Both the position numbers and the translations under genes were made by a program. From an uncultured virus (IMG/VR IMGVR_UViG_3300035498_001541) (Duplodnaviria; Heunggongvirae; Uroviricota; Caudoviricetes): a DNA stretch of 64,000 bases. The DNA is taken from the IMG/VR virus record IMGVR_UViG_3300035498_001541. One strand, given 5' to 3'. This document shows, piece after piece, positions 7,651-63,457 of the stretch; positions within the stretch are counted from its first letter, which is position 1; each line of letters begins with the position of its first letter. A model generated the notes under the pieces. It made no database searches. It was not told where the DNA came from and worked only from the letters and a program-made list of their open reading frames with translations.

Positions 7651-10600
7651 TTAAAAGAAATTCATTGAATCAACTTCACCGCTACTGTTACCTGCAATCT
7701 CTGGATTATCTTCTTTCTCCTCTGAATCCTCTGTACTTGCACTTGCTTCAAAGTCAACATCATCGTCGAAGTCGAAGTCATCCTCAAACTCATCAAAGTC
7801 TTGCTCTGTGAAATCGGTTACATAGTAAAACTCATATTCTGTCTTACCTCTTTCAGCAATTAGAGAATCCACAGTTCCCGGAGACAAGATACACCCACTT
7901 GGCAAAACAGAAACATCCGCAACAACTGGGCTGCCAATACTAATCTCTCTTACCTGTGTACACTCTGTCAAAAGCTCACTATTAAGGAAGTACCTAATGG
8001 TACACTCAACAGTATTACTTTCCTCTACAAGCTCCTCTGCTTCCTCCACAGGCTCTTCTTTCTCTACACTGCTAAAGGCATCCATTGCACCTAAGCCATC
8101 GCTCTGAGCAACAGGCTCCTCAACACTTTCTGGTTCATCAAGAAGAATACTATCATCGAAGAAGTCCATATCAAAGGAGCTATCGCCCCCACCGAAACCT
8201 GCGGACTCAATCATCTGAATATAGTCCTCTTCAGTCTCAGTGTCATCCTCCAAACTAATATCACCAAAAAGTGAATCACTTACTGGATTAGACAAAACCT
8301 TCAACTCACTAGAGCCAACCTCTTGACCAATACTGATATTACCTATTGGTGAGTTATTAGTAGCACAATCACTCTTAAGGTCACTCATAGTGGCCCTTGC
8401 AATAACAGGTGCTTGCTCTGCAAAAGTCAATGCGGCAATCAAACCACTGTTCCTAAGAATAGTATCTTTGTTATCTGCTGTTTTCATCATATATTGTACG
8501 GAATCTCCTGCAGCCATCAAATCACTGATTTTATATACACCACCAATAGCAAATTGGGGGTTATCAGAACTCGTTACAATCGCATGTTGGTTCTGTACAA
8601 TTACGAGAATCTCGAAATGCCTTGCGTTAATATCGATACTACTGTCATGGAAAATATTATAGTAGTTATGAATCCAAATCATCTGCTTACGTCTAAGAAC
8701 AACGTCAACACTCTTGTCGTCCTTCACACTATGGATACCATCTGCCACTAAAGGATACTTTGTAACCGGATACCCGGAATCAACCCATTCTCCATTCTTA
8801 ACAGACAGCATCTCATTAGGCACTTTCTCTGGAACCATACACAGAGGGTCACTACTCTTATTCAAATCCTGCAAAGGACAATGACCTCCTGCTGATGCTA
8901 AACACTTCTGGCACATCTCACAATTTTCTTTATCAACTGGCTCTATACTAATTGTTGCAGCATCATCCATTTTACTGATACGAGCATACCCAGAAAACTC
9001 TGGTATACTTGCAACCTTTGCACTAGAGCCACCAACAACACTACCATTCAAGTATGCATTAAATGTCTGCACACCAGAAGACAGTGATGAACCTGCAGCA
9101 CCACCCTTGTTTACAACGTTCATCGTAAGCTGAGCGGCCGGCTCACCAATAGCCTGTGCTGCTTCTGTACCAACAACCTCTCCAACCTCTGGCAACTGCA
9201 AGTTAGAATACTTCAATCCATAGCAATGAGCACAAACGCCATTCTTTGCTTTACAATCGAGCATCACTCTTGCCTGTATTCTGCTAACTCCGTCCCTCTC
9301 AATATAGTCAAGAGTCTCCGGAGTAATAACATTTACAATCTCTCCAGTAGTATGATTAGTTCTGGCACTCAAGTACTTAATCTCTTTTGCTTCCCTGTAC
9401 AACAACTCACTCCGGCAAGCCTTTGTCATAGTATACCTGCACTCAAGATTACCATAGTTAGTTGCAATATTCATTACCTTGTAATTGTCGAAAGCCTGTA
9501 TAGCATCTGTCGTAAGCTCCTCATTCTCATCAACCAAGAAAGCAAACTTCTTCTTGTTCTCTGTATCAGCAGAAGATACAACAGACCCAAGCAAAATGTC
9601 AGGCTCTGCTACGATACTGTGTTCACCCTTTGAATCACGAATCGTAATCTGGTTAAACCCTTCACTCTGCAAAAGGCTAAAGGCTTCATCACCAAGCACA
9701 CCATTCTCAGTTGGAACCTCAATATCGCAAGAAATCAACTCATTGCCTCTGAGCTTCTCATCAAACCATTCTGAGGATGGCTCAAACCTGGACAACTCAT
9801 CAATCCTGTCATCCCAAACAACGTCATACCACCAATCGGTCTTACCGCAGTCACTTGCAGTAATCTTAAACCCATCGGTCATATAGACAACTTTACGAGT
9901 TGAGAAACCTGCATCTCTTGTCTCACGCTGTGTGGAAGCAACACCGGTTCTTGAAGAATAACTTGCCATATGCACATCGAAAGTATCAAGCCCCTCATAG
10001 TAGTTACTCGTTACAGAGTCAGACATATTCTCGACTTTAGTTTTCTCTAATACACCTATTGCACCACACATATGCATAAGCTGACTCAAATTACCTCTTG
10101 CACCAGAATCCATCATGATAAACAGATTGTTATTTCTGGAAATATTCTCTACAAGAGTATTCTGAATCTTCTGATTAGCTCCAAACTTCTTATCTGTGTA
10201 TAGAGAAAGTATAGCATCCTTAGCATCTTCCTCAGCAATCAAACCATTCTGCTGATCTTGCTCAATCAATGCTCTTTTTGCATTTACCTCCTCTAAAATC
10301 TGTTTCTTGTTGTTCTCAATATCTAAATCATCGATACTGATTGACACACCGAACAAATCTGAAAACTTAAACCCAAACTTCTCAATATCATAGTATGCAG
10401 AAATGCACCCTGATGCTGTCTCGTCTGAATCCAAATACAACTGCTTACAAATCTCCTGCAGATTGTAATACACTAAAGGCTCCTTGCCACCTTTTCCGCT
10501 GGTAATTACACCATCGTACTTCAGCTTGTAGAACTTACTCGTATCAATACCTGCAAGATTCAATGGATTGTCAAAAGGCTCTTCTGTAAAACCGTCCTCA

Positions 10601-13600
10601 AAGATACTGTTAAACAGAATACGACCTGCTGTACTTACATACCTAAATACTTCATCCCGCTCTGGACAGAAAGTAAACACTACAAGGTCGTATGGCTCAA
10701 TCATACCGCTGAACACGTCCAACTCAATCTCTGTGATAGAGTTGTAATAGTACGCATCACTGATACTCTGTGTGCAAACTTCTGCATTATCTTTAAGCAT
10801 AGTTGCACAATAGCACCCAAGCGTAATATCCTGTGTATGCTCAAGCATTACAGAACTGTTCTTAGGATTGATAAAGTCAACTTTTGGACTAAGTTTCTCA
10901 ATAGCCTCGTCCCTAGCCTCCTTAGACATCATACCAGTAAGCCACATCTGGTCACCATCAAAGTCCGCATTATATCCCTTACACACCAGAGAATTAATCT
11001 CTATGGTCTTAGACCAAATAGGTACCGGATAAAAGGCACGAATACTATATTTATGCAGTGAAGGCTGACGACCTGCTAAAACCACCTGTGGCTCCTTTGC
11101 ATTGCCATCAATATCCTTGTCGCCAAAGAAGCACATAATCCACTGCTTCATCTTAACAAATGCAGTCCCCGCATTCATCTCGAAAGCTGATGCAAGGTTA
11201 TTCTTTTTCTTCTGATAAATCTTTGTAAATCTTTCCTGATTATTCAGAGCCAACTGCAAAAACAGCTTAGACCATACACTATTTGGAATATGCTCCTCTG
11301 ATGAAAGCATCTTCTTGAAATACGCAATCAGAGGTACCTCGTAAATCACTACAAGCATCTCTACCGGTACACCAAGTTGCAATGGACTAATCTCATACCT
11401 AGCCGGAGAAATTACAGCACGACCTGCACAGAAAACTCTCTTAGACTGTGTAGCAGACCTAATCTTTCCATGCCCTTTATCGTCCTTACCAACAAAGTAC
11501 TCCATCACACCTTTAAACTTGCTGTCCTTACCTTGATTAGAAGAACCAATTAAGTCTTTAATCCTATCATATAGCATCTTCACATTTACTGTGGAAGGGT
11601 CTGCTTTTACATTCCTTGCCGCAGTCAAAATCTGCTCATAGAAGTGGTCAAAGTCAGAGGTAGCATGTCTTGTGCTTGCCATTTTTATCTCTGGTCTAAA
11701 GGACTGTGGCAATACTGGATAAGTACTCGTCACATAGTCACTTGGAGACTGCCCAGAATCATTGAAGCTCTTCACCATATTATAACCTTTTATCAGACTC
11801 AAGTATGATGGCTTCTCCAAAGCCTTAGGGTCTCCAGCTGCTTTCTCTACAGCCTTGTCAACCTTATCTTTGAGTTTTTGCTCCATCTCTTCAGTATCGC
11901 AATGCTCCACCATATAAACCAGAGCTTCCATACCAGTTCTTAGGTATCCTTTATACTCATCAGACAAAGCATCAACACAAGTGAACCCTTTTTCCTCTTT
12001 GGCACTGTAAACACTATAGTCATTACCAGACATACCATTAGGAATCAATACAAAAATCTCTCCGCTAATAATCCGGTACATCATTGAACTGTTTAATCCA
12101 GAATAACTATCACTACTCTTGCAAAGTGTAATATACTTAAAAATCTGGTCTTTCTCCACCCACTGTGGATGAATTATCTTTGTACCAAGCTCAATATAGC
12201 TCCAATGCCTCTTGGCATCATTCTTATCTAAAGCCGAATTGCTCCTACCGAAAAGTACGGTACTGTGCAAGTTATCCTTAGACTCAACAGGGCTAGAACT
12301 TAGTGCTCTAATCCTACTATCTGTCAATGGCACAAGCTCATAACAGTCTTCGCCACTATTACTAACAAACTCTGCACCCATCAAGCGGATAAAAGCCTGA
12401 AAAGTTACATCGTTATTATTCTGCCCTTCAATACTCTCTGGAAGTTCTCCCTCGTACCCTGCAGTAGTAGCTTTGTACTTCTCTCTAGCTACCACATCAT
12501 CTGATTGAAAACTGTACAAGTCGTGTAGTACATTAAAAGCACCTACACCATGCAGACACCAGTTCTCCATCTCACCGAAACTCTGGCCACCTTTATTCTT
12601 CTTACCTTTCTTTGGCTGTAAAAAGACCGGGTCAACTGGAGCATCCATACCAATAGCATGAATCTTACCAGCAGCAATATGCTCCAGCTTGTTCATATAG
12701 ATAACACCGGTATTGATCTTTCTCTTGAAAGGCAACCCAGTCCTACCATCAATAAGCTCAGTCGGATGCACATTAAACTGTTCGACCTGCTCCTTCACAA
12801 ACTTCAAATCATCTGGATGATATGCCGATACATATGATTGTTTTCCATCCAACAACCGGCACATACCTAAAGCTACCTCAATAAGCTGTGACAAGTTCTG
12901 TCTGGAAGGCACACCCAAAGGATTACAAATAATATCCAATGACCTACCAAGAGTAGGATTGTAAGGCATCTGCTCCTCCGGTACAATCTTTGCGATTACA
13001 CCTTTGTTTCCATGACGTCCTGCAAGCTTATCACCGCACTCAATATCAGCACGCAGTACCAGTACTACCTTGGCAACTTCTTCACCTTTCTCATTTGCAA
13101 TATAGGACTTTACTACCTGCCCGGCCATACTAGACCCAAGTCTTGTGTATTTCACATTGGTAGATGAACTGTCCTTGTGCAGCTTAGAAATAACCTTGTC
13201 GCCTGGCAGTAGCTTTGTGCCAACCTTAGGCAAACCCCTGTAATCAAAGTACCCAGAGTTAGCAACATCCTTTACACCAAACTTTTCAATATATGTCCCA
13301 TTCTCATCAGAGTGGCAAGTCTCCTCAATCAGCATAAAACGCTTATGAGTTAAAGTCTCATCGAATACAAGCCTATCACTGATTACAATAGCATCATCAA
13401 TACTCCTAGATTCATACGTCTTGTAACCACAATATAGATTCTTACCAAGAGCAAGACCTCTGTTCAAATCTTTGTCTTTAATATCCAATCCGCCGTAATC
13501 CAAAAGGTCAACACGCTCAGACCCCTTCAAAGAATACCCTGTATTGTATGCAACAACATCTTCTGGCGAATACCTACGATTCTTTACATGGTTCAGTTTA

Positions 13601-15876
13601 AAAGAAAAACTGCTCTCTTCAAAGTTCCGCATATTATACGGCACTGTCAGAGAAGTCTTATCATTAAGCTTTCCTTTCTCACCATTCCTCAATGCAACAG
13701 CATCAACAACGAAAGTAAATACCCTAGTCTCTCCGACTTCCTTAATTCCAAAGAGAGTCAGAGTACTATTCATAATATCGTCTTTCATTGTCTTAAAGAC
13801 TTCGTTCTCATTCACATGGCTGTTATAGTAATTGAGCAAGATATCCTTCCCCAAATACACACCAAAGTCAACAATGCTCTCGCACCCAGTACCAACTAAA
13901 GGTCTTTCCGGATTCACTGTGTCAACAGTCTGCTTCTGCTGGTTACATGACATGGTAATACGTTTACCATTACTATGCCCCGGAAACGTAACCATTGCAT
14001 GAGTCAAGGACATAGACTGCAAATTGGAGAACTCCTTGTAATGCACCTTATCTACATCAACGACCTTTACGTCTCCATCGCACAGCACACGTATCTTCTG
14101 CTTCTTTGAACCATCCTCATTAAGGAAGGTCTCATTCCACATAGCAATATTCTTTCCTGTCGCTTCAACAGCACTAACCATTACTGGCTCATCAGACACC
14201 ACCTCACCATTACGTACAACAAGGTACGGTGTCGTAATATATCCAGCCTCATCTGTCTCGGCTAAAAGAGTTTTGTGATGCACAATACCAATCTTCGCAG
14301 ACTCTGGTGAATCGTACGGGTCAAGTCTGCCTTCCTGTGTATCCTGTACACTAATCATTTCAACATTGGCATTATTAGCATTTATCTTAGAAGAAATCTT
14401 ACTACTCTTAGACGTGAAAGCAACAATATTACACATCTCACTCATCTGACCATTGCTGAGCTTTGTATCCCGTACGCGGTCAATAAACTCATTCATATTG
14501 AGATTGTAGTTGGTCACAACATGAGTAAGAGATTCCTCCGAATTCGCTACAGAACGCTCAATCTCAGACAGAACCTTTGCCACGTTATTAGAGATAATAT
14601 CACTTGCGATATCTCCAAAAGGAACACACACTCTGTTCGTGAGCTCATACTGTTTATCGAAAACATCAAGACCGTTAAGGTTATCCATCCACATACTAAA
14701 TCCTGTGAAGATATCATCAATGCACAGAACATCAGCAGTGGCTCTTCTCATAATAGTCTCAACTCCGGAGCTGCTCTTTGCTTTTACTTTCAGCTTTGTT
14801 AGCTCGGACCCATTCAGCATAGCCAATTCGTCAAGACCTAAGATAGTGCCGGACTTCAAACCCAAAACATCTTCAGCAAGAATCATCCCGTATGCTCTAA
14901 AGGTCAGTGAGGAAAACTTCTTCAAGTCAAAAACCTTTCCGTCGTGATTAATCTTCAAAGACGAAATAGGTGCAGCATCCAGCACTTCGAGAATTTCATT
15001 CGTTAATACAGTGCCAGCCTCAAAAACTGTCCCGCCAATTCTTACAGTTTCTGCTAACAGCTTACCAACAGCACGATGTTTAAAAGACTGAAGATTCTCA
15101 AATCTATCATGATTGTAAGAACCAAGATTGAGATTATGCTTCTTGTACAAAGCACCCTCAATAGCATCCAATCTCAGCTTTGCAGAATTTGCAGAATCAG
15201 AGGTAGCCTTTCCTAAAATAGCTTCTGCTGTAATCTTAATACACTCACTGCGGCTTACATCCTTCAAGTGGTCTTCGCTACTAAAAGCAGCAATCACAAA
15301 AGGATTAGAATGCCCGAACATTTCCATCAGCTCATAGTTACTCATTCCAGTCAAAGCTCTAAAGAAAACCGATACCGGAATGGAATTCTTTTCGTTTGTC
15401 CCTTTCACCTTAAAGGTCACTAACGGCTTTCTCTTTGTATCGTACGAAAACTCAAATGAACGACCATACTTTCCGGACACCTTAGCAGTGATAGTTGGGT
15501 ACTGCTCTGTATTCCTTTTCTGATAAGCAAACAGCCATCCGGTCATCTTCTCATAAGCATCAAGAACCTGCATATAGTTCCCATTAATCTTGAAACCTAA
15601 TTCCTGAAATGCAGGCATATGAAGGAGGTCAACATTAAACTCGATAGCCTCCTTACTGACTTTATTTGTAAGAACACACTTCATTCTGACAGGATAATAT
15701 TCCGTCCCTCTATCCTGCTTAATATCCTCCAAGTTAATGGGGAACATCTCACATGAAATATTATAGGTATCCGAAATATCTTTACTCCCGGCAGAAATAA
15801 TCTCTGGAAATCTTCTTTTTATCAAATCATTAAAGGCAACACGCTGGTTGTCCCTCAACTCATTTGCGCTTTTCAT
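7651..15876 (-). CDS. rpoBC: Fused beta-beta' multisubunit-type DNA-directed RNA polymerase (about 2741 aa)
   Basis: Beta motifs GDKLAGRHGNKGV, NPLGVPSRQN and GGQSFGEME; beta' motifs PVLPQSFRP, RQPSLHK, catalytic YNADFDGDQM (10951-10971), SGARG and AAQAIGEP, all in one uninterrupted ORF. Start placed at ATG 15876 behind GGAGG. Confidence 0.95.
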   Translation of the reverse strand: MKSANELRDNQRVAFNDLIKRRFPEIISAGSKDISDTYNISCEMFPINLEDIKQDRGTEYYPVRMKCVLTNKVSKEAIEFNVDLLHMPAFQELGFKINGNYMQVLDAYEKMTGWLFAYQKRNTEQYPTITAKVSGKYGRSFEFSYDTKRKPLVTFKVKGTNEKNSIPVSVFFRALTGMSNYELMEMFGHSNPFVIAAFSSEDHLKDVSRSECIKITAEAILGKATSDSANSAKLRLDAIEGALYKKHNLNLGSYNHDRFENLQSFKHRAVGKLLAETVRIGGTVFEAGTVLTNEILEVLDAAPISSLKINHDGKVFDLKKFSSLTFRAYGMILAEDVLGLKSGTILGLDELAMLNGSELTKLKVKAKSSSGVETIMRRATADVLCIDDIFTGFSMWMDNLNGLDVFDKQYELTNRVCVPFGDIASDIISNNVAKVLSEIERSVANSEESLTHVVTNYNLNMNEFIDRVRDTKLSNGQMSEMCNIVAFTSKSSKISSKINANNANVEMISVQDTQEGRLDPYDSPESAKIGIVHHKTLLAETDEAGYITTPYLVVRNGEVVSDEPVMVSAVEATGKNIAMWNETFLNEDGSKKQKIRVLCDGDVKVVDVDKVHYKEFSNLQSMSLTHAMVTFPGHSNGKRITMSCNQQKQTVDTVNPERPLVGTGCESIVDFGVYLGKDILLNYYNSHVNENEVFKTMKDDIMNSTLTLFGIKEVGETRVFTFVVDAVALRNGEKGKLNDKTSLTVPYNMRNFEESSFSFKLNHVKNRRYSPEDVVAYNTGYSLKGSERVDLLDYGGLDIKDKDLNRGLALGKNLYCGYKTYESRSIDDAIVISDRLVFDETLTHKRFMLIEETCHSDENGTYIEKFGVKDVANSGYFDYRGLPKVGTKLLPGDKVISKLHKDSSSTNVKYTRLGSSMAGQVVKSYIANEKGEEVAKVVLVLRADIECGDKLAGRHGNKGVIAKIVPEEQMPYNPTLGRSLDIICNPLGVPSRQNLSQLIEVALGMCRLLDGKQSYVSAYHPDDLKFVKEQVEQFNVHPTELIDGRTGLPFKRKINTGVIYMNKLEHIAAGKIHAIGMDAPVDPVFLQPKKGKKNKGGQSFGEMENWCLHGVGAFNVLHDLYSFQSDDVVAREKYKATTAGYEGELPESIEGQNNNDVTFQAFIRLMGAEFVSNSGEDCYELVPLTDSRIRALSSSPVESKDNLHSTVLFGRSNSALDKNDAKRHWSYIELGTKIIHPQWVEKDQIFKYITLCKSSDSYSGLNSSMMYRIISGEIFVLIPNGMSGNDYSVYSAKEEKGFTCVDALSDEYKGYLRTGMEALVYMVEHCDTEEMEQKLKDKVDKAVEKAAGDPKALEKPSYLSLIKGYNMVKSFNDSGQSPSDYVTSTYPVLPQSFRPEIKMASTRHATSDFDHFYEQILTAARNVKADPSTVNVKMLYDRIKDLIGSSNQGKDSKFKGVMEYFVGKDDKGHGKIRSATQSKRVFCAGRAVISPARYEISPLQLGVPVEMLVVIYEVPLIAYFKKMLSSEEHIPNSVWSKLFLQLALNNQERFTKIYQKKKNNLASAFEMNAGTAFVKMKQWIMCFFGDKDIDGNAKEPQVVLAGRQPSLHKYSIRAFYPVPIWSKTIEINSLVCKGYNADFDGDQMWLTGMMSKEARDEAIEKLSPKVDFINPKNSSVMLEHTQDITLGCYCATMLKDNAEVCTQSISDAYYYNSITEIELDVFSGMIEPYDLVVFTFCPERDEVFRYVSTAGRILFNSIFEDGFTEEPFDNPLNLAGIDTSKFYKLKYDGVITSGKGGKEPLVYYNLQEICKQLYLDSDETASGCISAYYDIEKFGFKFSDLFGVSISIDDLDIENNKKQILEEVNAKRALIEQDQQNGLIAEEDAKDAILSLYTDKKFGANQKIQNTLVENISRNNNLFIMMDSGARGNLSQLMHMCGAIGVLEKTKVENMSDSVTSNYYEGLDTFDVHMASYSSRTGVASTQRETRDAGFSTRKVVYMTDGFKITASDCGKTDWWYDVVWDDRIDELSRFEPSSEWFDEKLRGNELISCDIEVPTENGVLGDEAFSLLQSEGFNQITIRDSKGEHSIVAEPDILLGSVVSSADTENKKKFAFLVDENEELTTDAIQAFDNYKVMNIATNYGNLECRYTMTKACRSELLYREAKEIKYLSARTNHTTGEIVNVITPETLDYIERDGVSRIQARVMLDCKAKNGVCAHCYGLKYSNLQLPEVGEVVGTEAAQAIGEPAAQLTMNVVNKGGAAGSSLSSGVQTFNAYLNGSVVGGSSAKVASIPEFSGYARISKMDDAATISIEPVDKENCEMCQKCLASAGGHCPLQDLNKSSDPLCMVPEKVPNEMLSVKNGEWVDSGYPVTKYPLVADGIHSVKDDKSVDVVLRRKQMIWIHNYYNIFHDSSIDINARHFEILVIVQNQHAIVTSSDNPQFAIGGVYKISDLMAAGDSVQYMMKTADNKDTILRNSGLIAALTFAEQAPVIARATMSDLKSDCATNNSPIGNISIGQEVGSSELKVLSNPVSDSLFGDISLEDDTETEEDYIQMIESAGFGGGDSSFDMDFFDDSILLDEPESVEEPVAQSDGLGAMDAFSSVEKEEPVEEAEELVEESNTVECTIRYFLNSELLTECTQVREISIGSPVVADVSVLPSGCILSPGTVDSLIAERGKTEYEFYYVTDFTEQDFDEFEDDFDFDDDVDFEASASTEDSEEKEDNPEIAGNSSGEVDSMNFF

Positions 15877-16102
15877 ATTGTCCCTCCAAATTCTTAATTT
15901 CCTGCTCAGACGTAGCATCAACTAAGATACTCCGCAGCAACTTACTGTATTCATTACCCTGTGCATTCAACAATGTCCATTTGTATGCTGAAATCACACT
16001 CTGTAGGGGTACAAAAGACGGGTAATCATATAGCATGGCTATCATACACTGGTCTGGCATTACAGCCTCAGTGTTCACAAATAAATCCACGAATTTTTTC
16101 AT
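15860..16102 (-). CDS. Hypothetical protein overlapping the RNAP start
   Basis: Likely start MKKFVDLF; tightly packed with neighbours. Confidence 0.6.
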   Translation of the reverse strand: MKKFVDLFVNTEAVMPDQCMIAMLYDYPSFVPLQSVISAYKWTLLNAQGNEYSKLLRSILVDATSEQEIKNLEGQYEKRK

Positions 16103-16380: not shown

Positions 16381-16614
16381 TCAAAATAAGTCTAAACTGG
16401 CTGTGGCAACCGCTAAGTTCTTTGAGTTACTTGCCATACCACCATTCGCACCAACTGACATTCCGTCATCCACAAGGTCAGTATTCAGCTCACTGATTAA
16501 ATCATCATGGCTTTCCTGACTGTCTTCCTGTGTGTTTACTTGCCAAAGTGATGTTGGTGCACCAGACACTTCATGCATAGATACAACTTCGCTGTCTATT
16601 AGTTTCTTAGTCAT
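16381..16614 (-). CDS. Small acidic, probably disordered protein ending SLDLF
   Basis: 77 aa; overlaps the upstream gene. Confidence 0.65.
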   Translation of the reverse strand: MTKKLIDSEVVSMHEVSGAPTSLWQVNTQEDSQESHDDLISELNTDLVDDGMSVGANGGMASNSKNLAVATASLDLF

Positions 16615-17467
16615 AATTCATCATCTCCTTACACTGACCTAATGCAAAATTTACAAAATCCAAATCGGTTATCTTTACTCCGTAATTCCCGAACTCACTA
16701 ATCTTTTCCTGTACAAACTTCACAAGTTCATCCATTGTCATACTCTTGCATTTGTTTGGCAAAACATTCACCAAATACCTTGTGGCAATCATAGACAAAT
16801 TATCGTCCGAATAGTCTTCAAAGTACTTCGCAGCCTCATCCGCAATTCTCTCTGCTGTACTATTATCCACGTACTGCAGAACAGTCTCATCTTCTAGCCA
16901 CATACTAAACAGGTCAACAACACTAAGAGAATTGAAAATCCATACATAGTAATTTATCAAATCCTCAAAATACCTGTACTCGTAGTTACTTACAATAAAA
17001 TCTGTTATAGCAGAATTCTTCTCTACTGAGGCTCGCATAATAGTCATTAGCTTAATAGCGTATTCCTTTACAGTCTCGCTATCACTAAAGGCTTTCATCT
17101 CTTTTACATCCTCAAAGCTTGCAAGCTTGTTTACAGCCCTAAACTTTATCTTGTAGCACTCATCCTGTTCCTCTTTGCTAAACTCCCTACCGCTTTTAAT
17201 CAGCAGCTCAAGATAGAAAAGATTATCCCAAAACTGCACATCGTCTTCCTGTAATCTCTGAATTATCTCCTGATTACTTACCGGATTAGTAGCCACCAGC
17301 TTACTTACAAACCTGTCAAAGTCTCTCCTAAGCTCCAGCTCCTCCGTAGAAACAGAAACATGGGCCTCTGTACCAAGATTCACTATCTTGTAAAACCAAA
17401 GCTTTATCAATCTGTCAGAATACACTCGTTTATTTCTTGGGTCATAGTACGTTAATTCCTCATCCAT
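16607..17467 (-). CDS. Hypothetical acidic protein (286 aa)
   Basis: ORF coupled to the ligase gene. Confidence 0.75.
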   Translation of the reverse strand: MDEELTYYDPRNKRVYSDRLIKLWFYKIVNLGTEAHVSVSTEELELRRDFDRFVSKLVATNPVSNQEIIQRLQEDDVQFWDNLFYLELLIKSGREFSKEEQDECYKIKFRAVNKLASFEDVKEMKAFSDSETVKEYAIKLMTIMRASVEKNSAITDFIVSNYEYRYFEDLINYYVWIFNSLSVVDLFSMWLEDETVLQYVDNSTAERIADEAAKYFEDYSDDNLSMIATRYLVNVLPNKCKSMTMDELVKFVQEKISEFGNYGVKITDLDFVNFALGQCKEMMNYD

Positions 17468-18704: not shown

Positions 18705-19127
18705 TTACCTCCTAGCAATCCTGCTCTCATACTTTTCTAAATCTTCGTACTCCGACAGTTCATCAGACTCCTCTTCAACACTGTCGAAATCAAAGCTACT
18801 CATCACAAGCACTTTAGCTGGCTGCTCAGCTTCTTTCTTCTTTTCCCAAACACCTTGGCACTTACCTGCTTTCTTAATAAAAACGTGCTTCGATGCAATA
18901 ACCTTAACATCCAGAAATCTAAACCTCTTTGAGGTAAAGACATCGTAATCAACCCACCCATAGGACTCAATCACTATACTTACACTATCGTGCTCAGAGC
19001 CACCACCACGCTGAATACACTTATACTGCTCTGAGAACTCAATACTAATTGCACTACCATACAAAGGTATTAGTTGCTCAATCAGCTTATCTACAGTAGA
19101 CTTTCTCCCAGTAATTACAATTTTCAT
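18705..19127 (-). CDS. Hypothetical protein
   Basis: 140 aa with RBS. Confidence 0.7.
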   Translation of the reverse strand: MKIVITGRKSTVDKLIEQLIPLYGSAISIEFSEQYKCIQRGGGSEHDSVSIVIESYGWVDYDVFTSKRFRFLDVKVIASKHVFIKKAGKCQGVWEKKKEAEQPAKVLVMSSFDFDSVEEESDELSEYEDLEKYESRIARR

Positions 19128-21539: not shown

Positions 21540-22513
21540 TCAATCACCCTCCCAATACGAGAAAGGTATGCTCCTTCCTCAGCTTTCACATTTAAGATTA
21601 TTGGCTTAGCCGCTTCTACGTTATCCAGAACTACAGTATCGAAGTCAATAGAATACTTCTCTTTACTATACTTGGATACACTAATCTCCAGTAAATACCC
21701 CTCTGGAATTATCAGTGCTACACCAGTCTCGACCTCAAAGAAATCCCCTTTGCGAGCCTTCACTTCAAAAAGCTCATCCCAGTTCTCCTTAACATCGTGC
21801 GTATAGATACGATAGTTAGCAAGACTCAAATACCCATCGCCTTTAAAAACAGATGGTACCGCGGTATTATCATAGACAATTTCCACACCATCTGTCTTAG
21901 CAATCCGTTTTGTCACCCGGTCATAGATAGTCTCTGTTGCAATCTTGAGAGCACCTACAACATTATCAGCATCAATCTTAAATGGCTCTGGCTCCGGTTC
22001 CTCTTCCGGCTCCGGCTCTGGCTCAGGCTCTTCTTCCTTCTCTTGATGAATAACATCCATATGCTGTTTGTCATTATCAATCTTAAACAAGTCGAGAATC
22101 TCCATCTCAGCATTGTTCTCTATGGCTTTGGTCTCATCGTCCATCTCGTCATCATTGGCGAACACATCCAGAGCCATATCACCAAAATCCCCGAAAGACA
22201 TACTATCGTCATCTGCAAAATCTCCGCCGAAGAAGTTCATTTCTTCTTTCTGCTCTGCCTTGCTTTCTTCTGCAGCCTTAGCTTCTTCCTCCGCTTCCTG
22301 CTCCTCTTTTCTCCGACGTCTACGTCTACCAGAACTCTTACTGCCACCGGCATCCTCCTGCTCGGCACCTACTATCTCGTCAACAGAAGGTACTGTACTC
22401 CCTCCAGCTAAATCCTCAACTACAGTCTCACCGTAGCTTTCCTCGGATGCTACACTTGCCGCTTCAGCAACTGCACCCATTTTCTTTGCGTCTTTAGACT
22501 TTCTCCTAATCAT
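21518..22513 (-). CDS. Acidic disordered protein with a degenerate dUTPase-like C-terminal domain
   Basis: ETGVALIIPEGYLLEI...VVLD...IGRVIECRLV follows the trimeric dUTPase scaffold but lacks the catalytic motifs. Confidence 0.6.
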   Translation of the reverse strand: MIRRKSKDAKKMGAVAEAASVASEESYGETVVEDLAGGSTVPSVDEIVGAEQEDAGGSKSSGRRRRRRKEEQEAEEEAKAAEESKAEQKEEMNFFGGDFADDDSMSFGDFGDMALDVFANDDEMDDETKAIENNAEMEILDLFKIDNDKQHMDVIHQEKEEEPEPEPEPEEEPEPEPFKIDADNVVGALKIATETIYDRVTKRIAKTDGVEIVYDNTAVPSVFKGDGYLSLANYRIYTHDVKENWDELFEVKARKGDFFEVETGVALIIPEGYLLEISVSKYSKEKYSIDFDTVVLDNVEAAKPIILNVKAEEGAYLSRIGRVIECRLVTK

Positions 22514-44283: not shown

Positions 44284-44298
44284 GAATACACCCCTTTC

Positions 44299-46189: not shown

Positions 46190-46498
46190 CTAGAAAGCTT
46201 TCATCTCACCTGTAGCCTCTGAGCCAAAATACTTATCATAATCCTTAAGAGCAGACTCTGTTGCTACACCAAGGAAATCCGACAACGGTCTCATGTATAC
46301 ATCCTCATCACCAAGGTGATAGCCTTTTAGTATCACTTCATCTTTTGCTTCCTCAATCTGCTCGACAACTTTATACAGTTGCCAACGTGCGGAATGACTA
46401 TAAGTATCCAAGCACTCTGGCTTAACCACTAAAATCAAGCCTGTGAAATCGTTAATTGTACACTTCTTGTAATCAGACTCATCACAAATAATCTTCAT
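46190..46498 (-). CDS. Hypothetical protein ending GEMKAF
   Basis: 102 aa with GGAGG RBS. Confidence 0.7.
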   Translation of the reverse strand: MKIICDESDYKKCTINDFTGLILVVKPECLDTYSHSARWQLYKVVEQIEEAKDEVILKGYHLGDEDVYMRPLSDFLGVATESALKDYDKYFGSEATGEMKAF

Positions 46499-49203: not shown

Positions 49204-50154
49204 CTAAAAGACCTGCATCTCGCCTGTCCCAGTCATTTGGCTACACTTGTATTGCAGTATTGCTTTAAGCTGCTTAAGTGGATTGTACTCAGCAATTACT
49301 TCTTCCGACAATCCATTACGTTCACCTAAGAAGCAAGGTATAGCCTCAACCCTATCACTGTTCACATCAGCCATAGAACAGAACGCCTCTTTGTGCTCTT
49401 TGGACCTGCTCGCTATGCTGCCACAATCCTCTACTAAATCAACTTTGTTTTGTACCAAAACTGTTGGCTTAGTCGGTTCCATCTTAAACATCTCCTGCAG
49501 TGGTTTGCTAATGCGCTCACCGTATGCACTAGGATAATCAGCCAAAGGAGAAATCACAGCAACAGTATCTGCCACCTTAGCAAGAAGCTTAGCATAGTTC
49601 ACATCCCTTTCCAAATCCCCAAAATCGTGATTAAGGCCGACACCATCAATCATGCTAAACTCCACAAAGCCGTTCTCATTGGTAAATCTCTTGCTTACCT
49701 CCGTGTCATCTAAACACATCTTCTCAAATTCAGTGGACATTGGCACGTATACTATTAAAGTGGCAAGCGTCTCCAACACTGCATTTGCAAAAGATTGTAG
49801 AATGGTCTTGATAAACTCTTTATCCGGATTCTTCAAATCAATCTCTTTGTAATAAAAACCATCTGACGACTTGTTCTCCTTAGGAAACAGCTCATCAAAC
49901 ATTAAGTCCACCATTACTGAAGCCTTAGCATTGTGCCTCTTGTATACAGCAACAACAATCTTATCTTTCAGTTCAGATGTGTAAGTTACAAACTTCATTT
50001 CTGGTGAAAAACAGTTGCATTTTAAGCACTCCTGAAGTACCCCTTTGGCCTCATCGGCGGCAGGCGTCATAATAAACTCTGTCCTTCCTGCACCTGTAGC
50101 GCCTAAAACTGCAATCCCCTCATAATACAAATCAAGCTTGTCAGTAAATGCCAT
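49204..50154 (-). CDS. Degenerate TRAFAC/dynamin-like GTPase
   Basis: AVLGATGAGRT (K replaced by R), IDGVG and NKVD; ends GEMQVF. Confidence 0.6.
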   Translation of the reverse strand: MAFTDKLDLYYEGIAVLGATGAGRTEFIMTPAADEAKGVLQECLKCNCFSPEMKFVTYTSELKDKIVVAVYKRHNAKASVMVDLMFDELFPKENKSSDGFYYKEIDLKNPDKEFIKTILQSFANAVLETLATLIVYVPMSTEFEKMCLDDTEVSKRFTNENGFVEFSMIDGVGLNHDFGDLERDVNYAKLLAKVADTVAVISPLADYPSAYGERISKPLQEMFKMEPTKPTVLVQNKVDLVEDCGSIASRSKEHKEAFCSMADVNSDRVEAIPCFLGERNGLSEEVIAEYNPLKQLKAILQYKCSQMTGTGEMQVF

Positions 50155-50709: not shown

Positions 50710-51531
50710 TCAAAAGCATTTCATTGCCTCATTCTTCTTAGGATTGGTGAAAACCATCCTGTATCCACTATTTACATCCTCTACCTTCACAGTGTCAACA
50801 TAATCAAGAAAATCCCAACTAGCCAATAGACTCTCAAACTTCTCGTAAACACTATTCATTGAAAAGAAAGGTTTAGAATACCCAAGCACCACATGAGTTC
50901 TATCAGACGCATACCTAGCATTCACCCAGATAGGTACAATTGTACCTATCTCGCTATTAAAACGGAAACTGAAATCCTTGGAATAAACACTTACTACAAC
51001 TCTTTCTGCATCTGCAGCAAAAACAGACTTAAAACCAGTTCCTCTCTTATTCTCATACAACTTGTTGCTAACGAAAAATGAGCTGATTGCCCAAACATCT
51101 CTCCGGGTAAAACCAGCTTCATCATAAACAAACTCAATTGATGAATTTTCGTCATCAATCAACACATCAACTTCTTGTGTTCCGTCAAACTTTCCTTCAT
51201 TTACTAAAGCTTCCTGGTGCCTGCAGTCATCCGCATTTTTCAGTATCTCTTTAACGAACTGCAATCTATCATCAGCAAACTGCATATCTATCTTGTTCTC
51301 AAAGAACTTCGCATTTCTCTCAATAGCTGAATCGTATGCTCTAATTCTGAGCAATGCTACTAAGTTCACAAACTGCTCATTAGTCAACATTCCCTTGGTA
51401 AACAGGATTTCAAAATTCCTATCACCCTCAGTAAGCCTTTGGTACAAATCTCTAACTTCGTCATCGTTAGACAAAACCTCGTTACTCAAAAACTCCTCAT
51501 AATCAGCTAAAGTACTGCCTCTAAACTCCAT
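50710..51531 (-). CDS. Stand-alone GHKL (sacsin-like) ATPase domain protein
   Basis: FVKEILKNADD, GFT..DV.AI and GTGFKSVF; ends EAMKCF. Confidence 0.7.
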   Translation of the reverse strand: MEFRGSTLADYEEFLSNEVLSNDDEVRDLYQRLTEGDRNFEILFTKGMLTNEQFVNLVALLRIRAYDSAIERNAKFFENKIDMQFADDRLQFVKEILKNADDCRHQEALVNEGKFDGTQEVDVLIDDENSSIEFVYDEAGFTRRDVWAISSFFVSNKLYENKRGTGFKSVFAADAERVVVSVYSKDFSFRFNSEIGTIVPIWVNARYASDRTHVVLGYSKPFFSMNSVYEKFESLLASWDFLDYVDTVKVEDVNSGYRMVFTNPKKNEAMKCF

Positions 51532-51823
51532 TGCCAATCCTCCTCAAACGCTTAGCTTCTTGTAGAAAATCTTCCAAATCAAGTCGTATTCTTTGATTCT
51601 CAATATCCGGAATAATTAAATCTAAAAACTCGATATCTTCATCTTTCAAATAGCCAGCTTGTAAAATCTTTTCTACCTTATCCCTCGTAAGCTGTATATC
51701 TAAATCATATTCTGCAAAATTACCACAGTCTGCATAGTCAAGCAGATATCTTCGATAGAACCTCTCTAATGCATCCATACCTAAACGTTGCCACTTGGCT
51801 AAAGCAACACCTTCGAATTCCAT
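51521..51823 (-). CDS. Hypothetical protein
   Basis: 100 aa; coupled to neighbours. Confidence 0.65.
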   Translation of the reverse strand: MEFEGVALAKWQRLGMDALERFYRRYLLDYADCGNFAEYDLDIQLTRDKVEKILQAGYLKDEDIEFLDLIIPDIENQRIRLDLEDFLQEAKRLRRIGNGV

Positions 51824-53034: not shown

Positions 53035-53526
53035 CTACCAAACCATCATATCGCCAGTACACCCTACAAGCTCTTCGTATAGCTCTGCAGGATTCTCTGA
53101 ACTCTTTATCTCTTTGAAAACACTTACATCATTCTCTCTAACTATCTCAAAAGTGCTGTGCTGTAAGTCCTTAATTGAAGCCCTGTTCACAATAACAAAA
53201 GAGTTCCCTGACTTCTTCACAAAATCAAGAAACTCACTGCTGAAAACAAAATCATTATTTTCTTCGATAAAGACTACTGTATCATGCAAGCCTAAAAGCT
53301 CATCTTTCCAATCATGCCCAACTTCTTTTCGCAAGTATACAAAGTAATCAGCATCAGTCTCGACTGAATACCCAGACCTTCTACCAACTCGCAGAAATTC
53401 ATACAGCATTCTAAGCAGTACAGTCTTACCGGTTGCACTATCACCTTTTAGCATTACAACCGGTTGCTCAACACTAAACTCAAATACAATCCTCTTACTC
53501 CTTACTCTAAAATGTTTGCCTTTCAT
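53035..53526 (-). CDS. Mini P-loop ATPase (DUF4869 partner)
   Basis: Walker A GDSATGKT and Walker B VVFIEE. Confidence 0.75.
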   Translation of the reverse strand: MKGKHFRVRSKRIVFEFSVEQPVVMLKGDSATGKTVLLRMLYEFLRVGRRSGYSVETDADYFVYLRKEVGHDWKDELLGLHDTVVFIEENNDFVFSSEFLDFVKKSGNSFVIVNRASIKDLQHSTFEIVRENDVSVFKEIKSSENPAELYEELVGCTGDMMVW

Positions 53527-53979: not shown

Positions 53980-54402
53980 CTACCAGTCTTCAGAATACTG
54001 CTTCAATGTATGAAACCCGTTATCATTTACCATCTCAAACACATCATGCTCTTCACGTATCACACCATCTTTCCTACTCATAATCAGAAAGTAATTGTCT
54101 GACTCATTAAGTAAACTCCTGTATCCCTTAAGCCTAAGAAGATAGCTATCATCATCAATCACAAATACATAATCAGAATCCTTTAACACAGCCTCGTAAG
54201 CCTTTAATGATGTACGTAGTGGCATTACTCGCAGCTTCTCGTACCCCAAGCACTCAATAAGCTCTGGCTCCATCTCGTATGCTGCTACCCTGTTACAAAA
54301 TGTTGTTTTTCCTGTACCAGACTTTCCCACCAGCACAGTGTATTTACTTGTAAGTATAAAATCAAACTCAACTTTCTTGTCTCTCAAATGAATTTCAATC
54401 AC
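53980..54402 (-). CDS. Mini P-loop ATPase (DUF4869 partner)
   Basis: GKSGTGKTT, FVIDDD and NYFLIMSR. Confidence 0.75.
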   Translation of the reverse strand: MIEIHLRDKKVEFDFILTSKYTVLVGKSGTGKTTFCNRVAAYEMEPELIECLGYEKLRVMPLRTSLKAYEAVLKDSDYVFVIDDDSYLLRLKGYRSLLNESDNYFLIMSRKDGVIREEHDVFEMVNDNGFHTLKQYSEDW

Positions 54403-60491: not shown

Positions 60492-60938
60492 TCATGCAGA
60501 CCTCCGCACAAAATAGTCCAGCAATAGTTCCTCCCAGTCATCAACACTATGAATCTCCCTACCGTCATCTAAACAAACTGCATCAAAATCCTCAAAGAAA
60601 TGTAGAAAGTGACATACATAGACTGTACAATCGCGTTTCTTCCCTATCTCAGCTAAGTATTTTGTGCAATTATCACCATACTGAGAAGATTTCATCACAC
60701 GATCCATCTCCAGTGTAACAATCAATGCTTTTGCTCCACCAGAAATTTTAGTAATAGGTATTGCTCCTAAAATGGGGCTCATTGCAATTTCTGGACCAAG
60801 AATCTCTGTGTTATCTACACCCTTCACCATTTCTTTTACAAACGGATCATCAAACCACTCATCTTCTCTATTAAAGTCAAAGAACGCATTGATACTATTA
60901 ATCGATTTTTCCGGTTCTTTAAAAGTTACATACAACAT
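60492..60938 (-). CDS. DUF4869-family protein
   Basis: Close paralog of 54399-54848; ISGGAK and GDNC. Confidence 0.8.
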   Translation of the reverse strand: MLYVTFKEPEKSINSINAFFDFNREDEWFDDPFVKEMVKGVDNTEILGPEIAMSPILGAIPITKISGGAKALIVTLEMDRVMKSSQYGDNCTKYLAEIGKKRDCTVYVCHFLHFFEDFDAVCLDDGREIHSVDDWEELLLDYFVRRSA

Positions 60939-60952
60939 ACAAACACCTCCAA

Positions 60953-61363
60953 CTAAAAACAATCCATTTCTCCTGAGAATCCTCTAAGCTCATGCTTCCT
61001 GCCATTTGAAACCATCTCGACTTCCACAGTCTGTGTCAAGCCTCTAATACCAAACCTGCTAACAATCACGAAATAATTATCCGAACTATTTAGCAACTCT
61101 GCACAATCATCCCTAAACAGAATTGGATTGCACTCATCCATAAAAAGAATCATACCTTTTGTAGCAAGATCCCTCTCCGACTCAACAACCTTTAAGTCCT
61201 TATCAGCTAAGCAGTCAACAGCTTCTGGATTACTATTAGAGTCTCTAACTAAATCAATCAGTGTAGTCTTCCCTTTACCGGAATCACCTCTAATAATCAG
61301 AAACTTCTGCCTAAACTCAAAGTCGTACTCAACAAAATTATTTCTCAAACTCACACGAGGCAT
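60953..61363 (-). CDS. Mini P-loop ATPase (DUF4869 partner)
   Basis: RGDSGKGKTT, ILFMDE and NYFVIVSR; ends GEMDCF. Confidence 0.75.
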   Translation of the reverse strand: MPRVSLRNNFVEYDFEFRQKFLIIRGDSGKGKTTLIDLVRDSNSNPEAVDCLADKDLKVVESERDLATKGMILFMDECNPILFRDDCAELLNSSDNYFVIVSRFGIRGLTQTVEVEMVSNGRKHELRGFSGEMDCF

Positions 61364-61806: not shown

Positions 61807-61817
61807 ACCCTATCTCC

Positions 61818-62087
61818 TTAGAATCCTATAATGCAGAAACCATTATCTAAATCCTGCTTGGTGCAGTCATCTGAAACATACTTAATGGTCACAGATGTTT
61901 CTCTCCCTGTGTACTCATCACCATCACACTCACGAAGCCTAACTGTATCTCCAACTCTATACCCACAATCGTTCTTCTGAATCTTAAACATTCTTTCTCC
62001 ACCAAGAACTGCTTCAAAATATTCATGCAAGATTTTTAGCTCATGAACCATTACTGATTTACAGCTTCCTTTTCTTGCAACACTCAT
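61818..62087 (-). CDS. DUF3850 / ASCH-PUA-like protein
   Basis: HELKI..EYFEAV..G...F.I.KND..Y.VGD...L.E....YTGR. Confidence 0.8.
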   Translation of the reverse strand: MSVARKGSCKSVMVHELKILHEYFEAVLGGERMFKIQKNDCGYRVGDTVRLRECDGDEYTGRETSVTIKYVSDDCTKQDLDNGFCIIGF

Positions 62088-62101
62088 ACAAACACCTCCA
62101 A

Positions 62102-63457
62102 TTAAAAACAGCTCATTGTACCCATCAGTCTCTTAAACACTTTAGCAAAAGTCCTAAAGTCTCTGGTCACGCTATCAATATCGGAATAGCAAACCTCTTT
62201 ACTATTTACGACCTCTGCCTTTTCCTTACCATTGTATATAACAAACCTACCATAAACATCATTATCTGGCATTGAGTCTTCAACAACATCACTTACTAAA
62301 GATGCTCCATCAGGCAGCCTAGTCTGATCACTCAGCTTACACTCGAAAAGGCATGTTGCTCTACTCCGACCTTCATCAACTACAATAAAGTCCAATTCAA
62401 AATCTCTGCCAGCTTTTCTACCTTTTGAATAATACAACTTCTCATCCTTAGTAATCACCTGCTTAAGGGCAACTACGCATGAGCACTCGAACAGATACCC
62501 CATCATAGAATCCGGTAAATCATCCCTACCCCAAATCGCTCTTACAAGCTGATATGACATAGACTGGTTTACAACGTAAACTCGAAACTGATTTCTCACC
62601 CTGTAATTTGCCACTCTAATCACAATTCCTGCTTTCTCCATAACCTCAGAAATTGTACTAAAAGAATGCATGTCAATCACTACACTGCTATCGACACCAA
62701 CCTCTTCTAAAAACTCTTCTTCGCTAACTCTGTCTAAGTTTCCTGCAGCACTCGGCACTGATTCAATCACAGAATCGCAAATCGCCTTATAAAAAATCGT
62801 GTAGACTACAGCCTTCACAATCTTCTCATCAATCTCATTGCCAACGTAGGCAGACACATTGTCAATAATAGCAGTCTTTACGTATTCTCTCAAACTGCTA
62901 AAACTGTCAATCACATAATCCTCAAAAACACCGCCGGTTCTCAAAAACTCAAGGCAACTCTCTTTCGTCTTTTCCTTTCTAAAGAGTCGTCTGTATTCAC
63001 TGTATGAAAAATAATTAGTCTGCACTACAATCACACGATGTATCAGCCGACCATAGTTCAAATACTCAAGCACTATAGACTCTGTACCCGACACAATCAC
63101 TCTTTTTCCATTCTCAACTAAAGTGTAAAGGTATGCATCTAAATTTTCCCGACCTCTAATCCATGGGTATTCATCAATAACAATGACATCTTCTGTTGCA
63201 TCACGAAGAACTTCCAGATAATCCTCATAGTCCTCTGTCTCTCCTGCTTGTGCAGTAAGGTACAACACACTTTCCGCAACCCCCTGTAGAATCCCAACAG
63301 TCTTCCCTGTTCCTCTCAATCCACTAACAACAAGAACTTTCATGCTCTTGCCGGCAACATACGTACTAATACTTTCTACGAAGTCACGTTTCTCCCAATC
63401 GCTCTCGACTAAACTACCTTTTAGTCTTCTAAATTCTTCTCCTCTAGCAACTAGCAT
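62102..63457 (-). CDS. AAA-type ATPase with C-terminal PD-(D/E)xK-like (DUF4143-like) domain
   Basis: GLRGTGKT, IVIDE, SGT and ELDFIV...LFECK; ends TMSCF. Confidence 0.8.
   Translation of the reverse strand: MLVARGEEFRRLKGSLVESDWEKRDFVESISTYVAGKSMKVLVVSGLRGTGKTVGILQGVAESVLYLTAQAGETEDYEDYLEVLRDATEDVIVIDEYPWIRGRENLDAYLYTLVENGKRVIVSGTESIVLEYLNYGRLIHRVIVVQTNYFSYSEYRRLFRKEKTKESCLEFLRTGGVFEDYVIDSFSSLREYVKTAIIDNVSAYVGNEIDEKIVKAVVYTIFYKAICDSVIESVPSAAGNLDRVSEEEFLEEVGVDSSVVIDMHSFSTISEVMEKAGIVIRVANYRVRNQFRVYVVNQSMSYQLVRAIWGRDDLPDSMMGYLFECSCVVALKQVITKDEKLYYSKGRKAGRDFELDFIVVDEGRSRATCLFECKLSDQTRLPDGASLVSDVVEDSMPDNDVYGRFVIYNGKEKAEVVNSKEVCYSDIDSVTRDFRTFAKVFKRLMGTMSCF

Follow-up and report, generated by a model that had tools for sequence, protein, structure and literature searches.

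In the stretch of DNA analysed here (the window; 64,000 nucleotides of the uncultured caudoviricete record IMG/VR IMGVR_UViG_3300035498_001541), seven proteins that are unrelated to one another end in the same short sequence, Met-x-x-Phe (M-x-x-F), and one of them is the element's own fused β-β′ RNA polymerase (RNAP). The motif also lies internally in that enzyme, in a family-A DNA polymerase (PolA) and in other proteins encoded nearby, and it is conserved in an undescribed family of giant gut elements to which the window belongs. We consider M-x-x-F to be very probably an element-specific short docking motif, shared by the polymerases and by unrelated proteins. The hub on which it docks is most likely a sliding clamp, an identification in which confidence and doubt are about evenly balanced.

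All real genes of the window lie on its minus strand, and the statistics were computed on 68 minus-strand open reading frames (ORFs) of at least 60 amino acids (aa), from which nested ORFs had been removed and of which 67 have a complete C-terminus. Seven of these 67 C-termini read M-x-x-F, all of them listed in an initial annotation of this DNA and confirmed by re-translation, and the expectation of well under one such end given there agrees with the values computed here, 0.08 from composition and 0.13 from the internal frequency of the pattern (binomial p ~8e-11). Residue combinations other than M and F at positions -4 and -1 are each seen at most twice among the same C-termini. In a control set of 3,913 ORFs of at least 80 aa from 234 unrelated bacterial and viral loci, no protein ends in M-x-x-F and 13 end in [ML]-x-x-F, and a single M-x-x-F end is seen among the 673 plus-strand stop-to-stop frames of the window itself. 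The near-matches SLDLF (16381) and GDMMVW (53035) were found as described, as were the internal copies MTAF in PolA, MDAF in the RNAP and MNFF in a 331-aa protein (22229–22240), and none of NrdD, MurF, Ddl, the penicillin-binding protein and the secreted Ig/fn3 proteins ends in M-x-x-F.

The seven tagged proteins yield no mutual BLASTP match at E < 0.01, which bears out their description as unrelated. Two of them have paralogues in the window that lack the tail, a 669-aa leucine-rich repeat (LRR) protein (42274–44283) and a mini-ATPase (53980–54402). The codons that specify the tail vary between the tagged genes, and no DNA repeat is common to the surroundings of their stop codons; an origin of the tail in a DNA repeat or at the RNA level was rejected on these grounds. 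Since the codons differ, nothing but one 17-base spacer is shared past the stop codon and the proteins are unrelated, the tail is a protein-level signal that has been gained several times. The spacer in question (TTGGAGGTGTTTGTATG, including a ribosome-binding site and a start codon) is present in identical form at 60936–60952 and 62085–62101 on the minus strand, after the stop codons of two unrelated tagged genes, and the genes downstream of it differ (DUF4869 and DUF3850). A 233-base contig identical to 44173–44405, spanning the tail of the tagged LRR protein, was recovered from an RNA-library run and may represent DNA carry-over.

Conservation of the tail among orthologues, on which the initial annotation had made its reading depend, is evident on the RNAP. 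A search with residues 2100–2756 as the query returned 36 fused RNAPs of the family, at 28–55% identity and on metagenomic contigs of up to 333 kb, together with 15 more distant bacterial or candidate-phyla RNAPs that served as an outgroup. The family proteins end in M-x-x-F in 16 of 36 cases and in a hydrophobic residue followed by x-x-F in 25, and 30 carry the latter pattern no more than five residues from the end, with some terminating in EAMSLF or TMSLF; none of the 15 outgroup RNAPs has such a tail. The RNAPs without it are P0014, P0021, P0026, P0027, P0028 and P0036, of which P0028 retains internal copies. Furthermore, most family RNAPs display two to five copies of [ML]-[polar]-x-F within their last 260 residues, and in the window these copies (SLFG, MDFF, MDAF and the terminal MNFF) are distributed over two acidic linkers.

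A similar pattern of conservation is seen in proteins encoded near the RNAP gene. In five elements the 77-aa acidic protein has the motif at its end or close to it, with orthologues ending in ELDLF, VMSLFS, DMDLFGGDLK or KLEAF plus 13 residues, and in the 286-aa protein the motif column reads EMKAF, AIHSF, ELQAF or SIKF across elements, its Phe (F127) occupying one of only four invariant columns. The variant of the motif tracks the client protein and not the element, as illustrated by EM[TN]AF in PolA and [LM][DS]LF in the 77-aa protein across elements, and this behavior fits a conserved pocket. Two further proteins of related loci may carry the motif: a NAD-ligase-like protein of locus L008 (6918–8123), which ends in RLDAFD, and a SecY homologue ending in KISLF in three closely related loci (L003 4646–5935, L002 4848–6137 and L004 2247–3536).

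The internal copy in PolA provides an independent sample of the motif. A search with the exonuclease region returned 208 relatives, and the best 120 of these 208 were aligned with the window copy, giving 121 rows to which the following counts refer. The insertion that holds the motif, measured between two conserved anchors, ranges from 6 to about 200 residues and is rich in acidic residues and in Ser, Thr and Asn. M-x-x-F is present in 57 of the 121 rows; among insertions of at least 35 residues it is found in 56 of 90, against a mean of 3.8 and a maximum of 9 in 200 shuffles, and the relaxed pattern [ML]-x-x-F is found in 73 of 90 against a shuffle mean of 17.2. Over 70 instances the motif takes the form [Q13/E12/N9]-[K17/E13]-[M56/L10/I4]-[N24/D10/T9/S9]-[L27/A25]-F-[G34/D13/S9]-[D18/E9]. 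A position-specific scoring matrix (PSSM) was derived from 62 distinct instances, to which neither the window nor its near-identical copy P0204 contributed, and was used to scan the proteins of the window. Seven hits scored at least 11 bits, against 0.8 expected, and hits at this level include PolA, the 331-aa protein, the C-terminus and an internal copy of the RNAP, and the tail of a 316-aa protein; matches in NrdD (603) and in two DUF4869 proteins reach it as well, but lie in folded domains and are likely due to chance. Lower scores were obtained for the 77-aa protein (8.8 bits), the 102-aa protein (8.0 bits), the tagged mini-ATPase (6.6 bits) and the AAA protein (6.3 bits). The motif is thus not bound to the C-terminus: it occurs in C-terminal, internal and multi-copy arrangements, on acidic or Ser/Gly-rich stretches of variable length.

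On the accessory proteins the tail is a lineage-specific gain. The best 150 of 378 homologues of the AAA_14 ATPase (E ≤ 0.001) were examined, and only 4 of these 150 end in [MLIV]-x-x-F within two residues of the terminus, the MSCF tail itself being found solely in a 72-residue fragment at 90% identity; the comparison with homologues proposed in the initial annotation thus bears out, for this protein, that relatives lack the tail. The tagged 316-aa protein has no relatives in a search of 5.8 billion proteins, and its predicted model adjoins dynamin-family G domains in the Atlas at a TM-score (template modelling score) of 0.59, which serves as a lead only. Sequence searches of the PDB with four of the tagged proteins gave nothing usable.

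A position-independent motif, often in several copies and set in flexible linkers on both polymerases and on unrelated proteins, points to a docking peptide for one hub. Its family consensus is [Q/E/x]-x-M-[N/D/S]-[L/A/other]-F, followed by Gly, Asp or Ser or by a free C-terminus, and carried by flexible acidic or Gly/Ser/Thr linkers. It is displayed on an internal loop of PolA, in two to five copies on the RNAP, the last at the very end of the chain, and on small conserved proteins encoded near the RNAP gene, and in this lineage accessory proteins of a defence-like island bear it as well: a dynamin-like GTPase, an ATPase of GHKL type, P-loop and AAA ATPases and a cytoplasmic LRR protein. On this reading the Met, and the Phe that lies three residues further on, would enter a hydrophobic pocket of the shared hub next to each other. 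That hub is most likely a β-type sliding clamp, either the host DnaN or a clamp encoded elsewhere on the element. Such a clamp would tether the DNA polymerase, would couple the element RNAP to clamp-marked (replicating or nicked) DNA, as in the late transcription of T4 and Mu, and would draw the accessory enzymes to the same DNA. We infer the binding of the motif to a pocket and, since no clamp gene was found in the DNA covered, the attribution of that pocket to a clamp.

Should the hub prove to be a sliding clamp, the element would provide the first known example of a multisubunit RNAP acting as a multivalent clamp client, a literature search having found none, whereas T4 and Mu reach the clamp only via small adaptor proteins. 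A clamp as hub would further imply that clamp-marked DNA is the target of defence-like ATPases, a dynamin-like GTPase and an LRR protein, and no defence system of this kind was found in the literature search. Whichever the hub, the motif offers a sequence handle for cataloguing the functional components of this large family of giant gut elements.

The closest published counterparts of the motif are ligands of sliding clamps. The β-clamp motif, QL[S/D]LF or QxxLF, may be N-terminal, C-terminal or internal (PMC12309361, PMC2705854, PMC9690074); in E. coli the residues that matter in its canonical form are Q, L and F at positions 1, 4 and 5 (PMC12309361), and residues 69-QAMSLF-74 of the E. coli delta subunit occupy a hydrophobic pocket of the β clamp (PMC2705854). 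The element motif resembles these ligands in being five to six residues long and ending in Phe, in having Leu or Met followed by Ser, Asp or Asn ahead of it, in residing on flexible termini or loops, and in being found on unrelated proteins that include DNA polymerases. The family ends EAMSLF, TMSLF, ELDLF and DMDLF fit the M/L-S/D-L-F core of the β-clamp motif. It differs from them in that Gln is mostly absent, Ala, Cys or Val occupies position 4 as frequently as Leu does and Met is strongly preferred to Leu at position 2, and in that the RNAP itself bears the motif, in several copies.

Two phage systems extend the parallel to transcription. In T4, gp43, gp55 and gp33 have interchangeable hydrophobic and acidic C-termini on flexible linkers, which couple transcription to replication (PMC2988020, PMC7892883, PMC9690074). 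As with the gp45-binding tails of T4 and RB69 (on the gp43 polymerase, the gp55 late sigma factor and the gp33 co-activator), a DNA polymerase and transcription proteins here have a sequence in common, shared by the RNAP, the 77-aa protein and PolA, albeit internally in the last, and the 77-aa acidic protein, encoded near the RNAP with a conserved tail, recalls gp33. The T4 tails, however, are borne by proteins that attach to the host RNAP, T4 has a known clamp gene, and its LDFL motif is a different sequence; in the present element the RNAP itself and accessory enzymes bear the tail, and the window and four related loci yielded no gp45-like gene. In Mu, MuC activates late transcription through motifs that bind the host clamp (PMC12867686), the MuC and Mor motifs being QHDLF and QPDLF and the family consensus Qx[D/E][L/M]F (PMC12867686). 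Mu likewise offers transcription proteins of a mobile element with terminal β-clamp motifs, and transcription on replicated or nicked DNA, but its proteins are small factors that act on the host RNAP and retain the canonical Gln and Leu. Among dynamin-like proteins, CrfC is a clamp binder (PMC6374313).

Other short motifs ending in aromatic residues invite comparison. The PIP box of PCNA ligands, Qxx[I/L]xxFF (PMC9690074), also places a hydrophobic residue three positions ahead of an aromatic one and is often C-terminal, but the element motif has no Gln at -6 and as a rule no second aromatic residue, and neither the window nor the four related loci yielded a PCNA-like gene. The residue that follows the motif Phe is Gly in 34, Asp in 13 and Ser in 9 of the 70 PolA instances, or the chain ends there. 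SSB (...DDDIPF) and the T7 gp2.5 and gp4 proteins have acidic C-terminal tips that end in Phe. These share with the present tails an acidic disordered linker, one or more hydrophobic residues and a terminal Phe that enters a pocket; in those systems, however, one hub bears the tip and many clients bear the pocket, whereas here many clients bear the tip, and the I-P-F sequence is absent. The internal copies of the motif, furthermore, do not fit a requirement for a free carboxylate.

The clamp was put to a structural test in which two copies of B. subtilis DnaN, as a stand-in clamp, were co-predicted with RNAP residues 2690–2756 in three runs, alongside three controls. The scores were 0.37, 0.35 and 0.07 (median 0.35), against 0.00 for the best control, with a partner pLDDT (predicted local distance difference test) of at least 32 and agreement between runs in at least 18% of contacts. 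In the calibration of this procedure, the mark was reached by 116 of 157 solved complexes and by 2 of 215 mismatched pairs. For the RNAP tail, the folding of tail peptides against DnaN suggested in the initial annotation thus lends weak support to a clamp, with a median of 0.35 against 0.00; the pass may reflect likeness to solved clamp-peptide complexes. On the broader claim of a docking or sorting signal, docking is supported by the enrichment, by the conservation on the RNAP and by the AAA homologues that lack the tail, while sorting is disfavored by the internal copies. Among the hubs listed there, a clamp best fits the internal and multi-copy sites on PolA, the 286-aa protein and the RNAP, although no hub was identified.

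Several results weigh against a clamp. The DnaN score falls in a band where passes are more often wrong than right unless the guess is likely beforehand, one of the three runs scored 0.07 and the clamp was a B. subtilis stand-in. Pfam and PHROGs revealed no gene for a clamp, a clamp loader or a PCNA/gp45-like protein among the 68 ORFs of the window, which covers about 64 kb of a contig of at least 132 kb, and Pfam revealed none among 58 ORFs of four related loci. Gln is found at position 1 in none of the seven window tails; in the PolA instances it is the commonest residue at -5 (13 of 70) and stands at -4 in 6 of 70. At position 4, Leu occurs in one of the seven tails, the others having F, A, V, C, C and C, and the PolA instances have Leu in 27, Ala in 25 and Phe in 5 of 70. 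Phe stands at position 5 in all seven tails and all 70 PolA instances. Positions 2 and 3, by contrast, agree with the β-clamp motif: position 2 is always hydrophobic, with Met in every tail and Met, Leu and Ile in 56, 10 and 4 of the 70 PolA instances, and position 3 has N, D, K, Q, K, D and S in the tails and Asn, Asp, Ser and Thr in 24, 10, 9 and 9 of the 70. A hydrophobic residue at -6 is present in only 2 of the 7 tails. No literature precedent was found for clamp binding by an LRR protein or by defence-like ATPases. Lastly, the 271-aa protein encoded upstream of PolA (3206–4021, minus strand) begins with MQVDLF, with similar starts in five orthologues, in a layout like that of the N-terminal motif of MuC. 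It is not counted as a canonical clamp motif because the predicted model places residues 2–4 in a β strand of the fold.

That 271-aa protein, which has orthologues in loci L003–L008 and belongs to no sequence family, deserves separate mention. Its AlphaFold model (pLDDT 85.9, predicted TM-score 0.85, from an alignment of six sequences) has the palm and fingers fold of family-A polymerases, matching Bst Pol I residues 473–876 with a VIA-align Z of 9.3 and a root-mean-square deviation of 5.1 over 241 residues (Foldseek E 9e-5), and no profile similarity to the adjacent PolA was found. Judging from the model, the protein may be a degenerate mini-polymerase or a polymerase accessory subunit. Other proteins were examined as possible hubs. 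A 931-aa neighbor gave nothing by PDB profile or in the Atlas and has no Pfam or PHROG match, and no clamp features were seen in the 227- and 229-aa proteins, which are mutual paralogues. The gene that follows PolA in related loci (L005 26917–27669, L006 26769–27407, L007 26760–27398 and L008 25590–26492) encodes a membrane protein that is not clamp-shaped: an invariant M-x-I-G-F N-terminus leads into a charged, disordered region, after which come a single transmembrane helix, a linker rich in Ser and Thr and a small β domain that is conserved. The conserved cytoplasmic tip of this protein could be another docking peptide. A match of the 331-aa protein to Pol32 (E 0.009) lies within a charged low-complexity stretch and carries no weight.

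The missing Gln, the rarity of Leu at position 4 of the tails, the failure to find a clamp gene and the lack of precedent for such clients together make a private hub a serious rival, if one that we hold only tentatively. Under this alternative the motif would be a docking peptide for a non-clamp partner of the element's own, such as a scaffold, a membrane anchor, a compartment protein or the RNAP-associated 931-aa protein, and would assemble an element-specific factory. All the evidence for a docking motif applies to it equally, and the departure of the motif from the β-clamp canon at positions 1 and 4 counts in its favor. The weak DnaN prediction also speaks for it, as does the presence beside the RNAP and PolA genes of conserved core proteins of no known fold, the 931-aa protein among them, and of the post-PolA gene for a membrane protein with an invariant cytoplasmic M-x-I-G-F N-terminus. 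The variant of the motif follows the client, however, a behavior more in line with a conserved pocket than with a private partner that co-evolves rapidly, and the closest published ligands are all clamp ligands. In a more specific form, which we regard as rather unlikely, a private scaffold or membrane-anchored organiser would gather the RNAP, the DNA polymerase and a changing set of defence-like enzymes in a replication-transcription-defence factory, which new cargo would join by gaining four C-terminal residues.

An export, packaging or degradation tag is difficult to reconcile with the motif copies conserved at internal sites. As a C-terminal signal for export or packaging, M-x-x-F would route the RNAP and a number of effectors through conjugative type IV secretion or into a particle, and they would enter a new cell together with the DNA. 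An element reliant on its own RNAP would profit from bringing it along, and the tagged accessory proteins sit in a defence-like island. Many secretion signals are acidic and unstructured, and so is the tail of the RNAP. Moreover, the Hodor megaplasmids, which are related giant gut elements, are described as conjugative (PMC12934698). A terminal signal would nonetheless fail at the conserved internal copies in PolA (56 of 90 listed insertions), in the 286-aa protein (F127) and in the RNAP, the RNAP is 2,756 residues long, and no secretion or virion gene was found in the window with Pfam and PHROGs; we consider export improbable.

A degradation tag read by a host or element protease, which would keep the tagged proteins short-lived, is more improbable still. 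Bacterial C-terminal degrons are typically hydrophobic at the C-terminus, and some of the tagged genes lead two-gene modules that resemble toxin-antitoxin or defence pairs, but such a tag hardly explains the internal, multi-copy and deeply conserved copies on both polymerases, and no protease gene is linked to the tagged genes in the Pfam and PHROGs annotation of the window. That the tails have no function, and reflect chance, shared ancestry or a repeated DNA element at gene ends, can be practically dismissed: two near-match tails occur on paralogues of one tagged mini-ATPase and the same spacer follows two tagged genes, but the seven ends are far beyond chance and absent from the background ORFs, the seven proteins are unrelated, their codons differ, the shared spacer lies past the stop codon, and the motif is kept at 30–60% identity in two large families.

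Table 1. Sites of the M-x-x-F motif and related sequences in the window (- in the strand column, minus strand).
Site	Coordinates	Strand	Remarks
C-terminal MNFF (...DSMNFF) of the fused β-β′ RNAP (gene 7651–15921)	7654–7665	-	Tail kept in 30/36 family RNAPs
Internal MDAF (8074–8085) and MDFF (8158–8169) in the acidic linker of the RNAP C-terminal region	8074–8169	-	
MTAF in the disordered insertion of PolA (gene 1–3306; 3′ end off the window)	2233–2244	-	PSSM 15.2 bits
C-terminal LDLF of the 77-aa acidic protein, three genes upstream of the RNAP	16384–16395	-	
Internal MKAF of the conserved 286-aa protein (16607–17467)	17087–17098	-	Aligned in orthologues
MSSF in the acidic tail of the 140-aa protein (18705–19127)	18792–18803	-	VIQAF at the equivalent place in the L005 orthologue
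MNFF, LDVF and LDLF in the acidic linker of the 331-aa protein	22085–22240	-	PSSM 15.0 bits for the first copy
C-terminal MDLF (...PMDLF) of a cytoplasmic BspA-type LRR protein (44299–45297)	44302–44313	-	669-aa paralogue without tail
C-terminal MKAF (...EMKAF) of a 102-aa protein of no known family (46190–46498)	46193–46204	-	
C-terminal MQVF (...EMQVF) of a 316-aa dynamin-like G-domain protein (49204–50154)	49207–49218	-	PSSM 11.8 bits
C-terminal MKCF (...AMKCF) of a 275-aa GHKL/sacsin-type ATPase-like protein with a TmtA-like N-terminus (50710–51537)	50713–50724	-	
C-terminal MDCF (...EMDCF) of a 136-aa P-loop mini-ATPase, before a DUF4869 gene (60953–61363)	60956–60967	-	
C-terminal MSCF (...TMSCF) of an AAA_14/DUF4143 ATPase (62102–63478)	62105–62116	-	
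Near-match tail MMVW of a 182-aa mini-ATPase paralogue	53038–53049	-	

The window has a G+C content of about 0.40 and a strong GC skew. Besides PolA and the 2,756-residue RNAP, Pfam and PHROGs identified an HNH protein, a NAD-ligase-like protein, a class A penicillin-binding protein, NrdD, a dNMP kinase, secreted Ig/fn3/Listeria-Bacteroides-repeat proteins, MurF, Ddl, a D-Ala-D-Ala dipeptidase and a hydrolase. PADLOC marks the part of the window from about 38 kb (38074–63478, minus strand) as a defence-like island with two DUF3990 proteins and their small partners (PDC-M13/M10/M42), two HipA-like PDC-M03A proteins, five DUF4869 genes, most of them behind a P-loop mini-ATPase of 136–182 aa, a NYN-domain protein, two cytoplasmic BspA-type LRR paralogues, the TmtA-like GHKL protein and the AAA_14/DUF4143 ATPase.

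A scan of metagenome contigs found seven true relatives (L002–L008), on contigs of 24–324 kb, with a common gene order of nrdD, 331-aa, penicillin-binding protein, 140-aa, ligase, 286-aa, 77-aa, two small genes, RNAP, HNH, 931-aa, 271-aa and PolA; some of them additionally encode SecY, TubZ, sortase and SpaA-type pilins. Locus L001 was ruled out as a member, its β and β′ genes being split and without tails. The family comprises more than 200 PolA relatives on contigs of up to 333 kb, with relatives from human gut assemblies, and is characterized by a PolA of 1,300–1,500 aa and by its own fused β-β′ RNAP; a class A penicillin-binding protein, MurF, Ddl and a D-Ala-D-Ala dipeptidase are likewise found in various members. 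The host is probably a species of Bacillota. It was not found in IMG/VR (with the RNAP as a single protein, RNAP and PolA alignments, or an exact 42-base match), in GTDB species genomes, or among annotated phages (INPHARED) or plasmids (PLSDB), and a literature search found no paper that describes it. Its lifestyle recalls two published groups of giant elements, the Inocles (PMC12340149) and the Hodor megaplasmids (PMC12934698); in the text available, the phrase 'RNA polymerase' is absent from the Inocle paper (PMC12340149) and has 0 occurrences in the Hodor paper (PMC12934698). Part of the window was present in a single sequencing run, with a share of 0.06 of sampled words, and this run is uninformative on habitat or expression level.

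Searches of the window for tRNAs and Rfam families found none. A hairpin with a T run behind it, located past the stop codon of the RNAP gene (7605–7650, minus strand), resembles an intrinsic terminator; its loop and stem resemble a tRNA T-arm (GGTTCGACTCC), and ARAGORN reports no tRNA there. The tagged 102-aa gene is flanked by the genes for the two paralogous proteins of 227 and 229 aa (45494–46177 and 46519–47208, minus strand), which belong to no known family and begin with MKIPNKKVK and MRIPNREVK.

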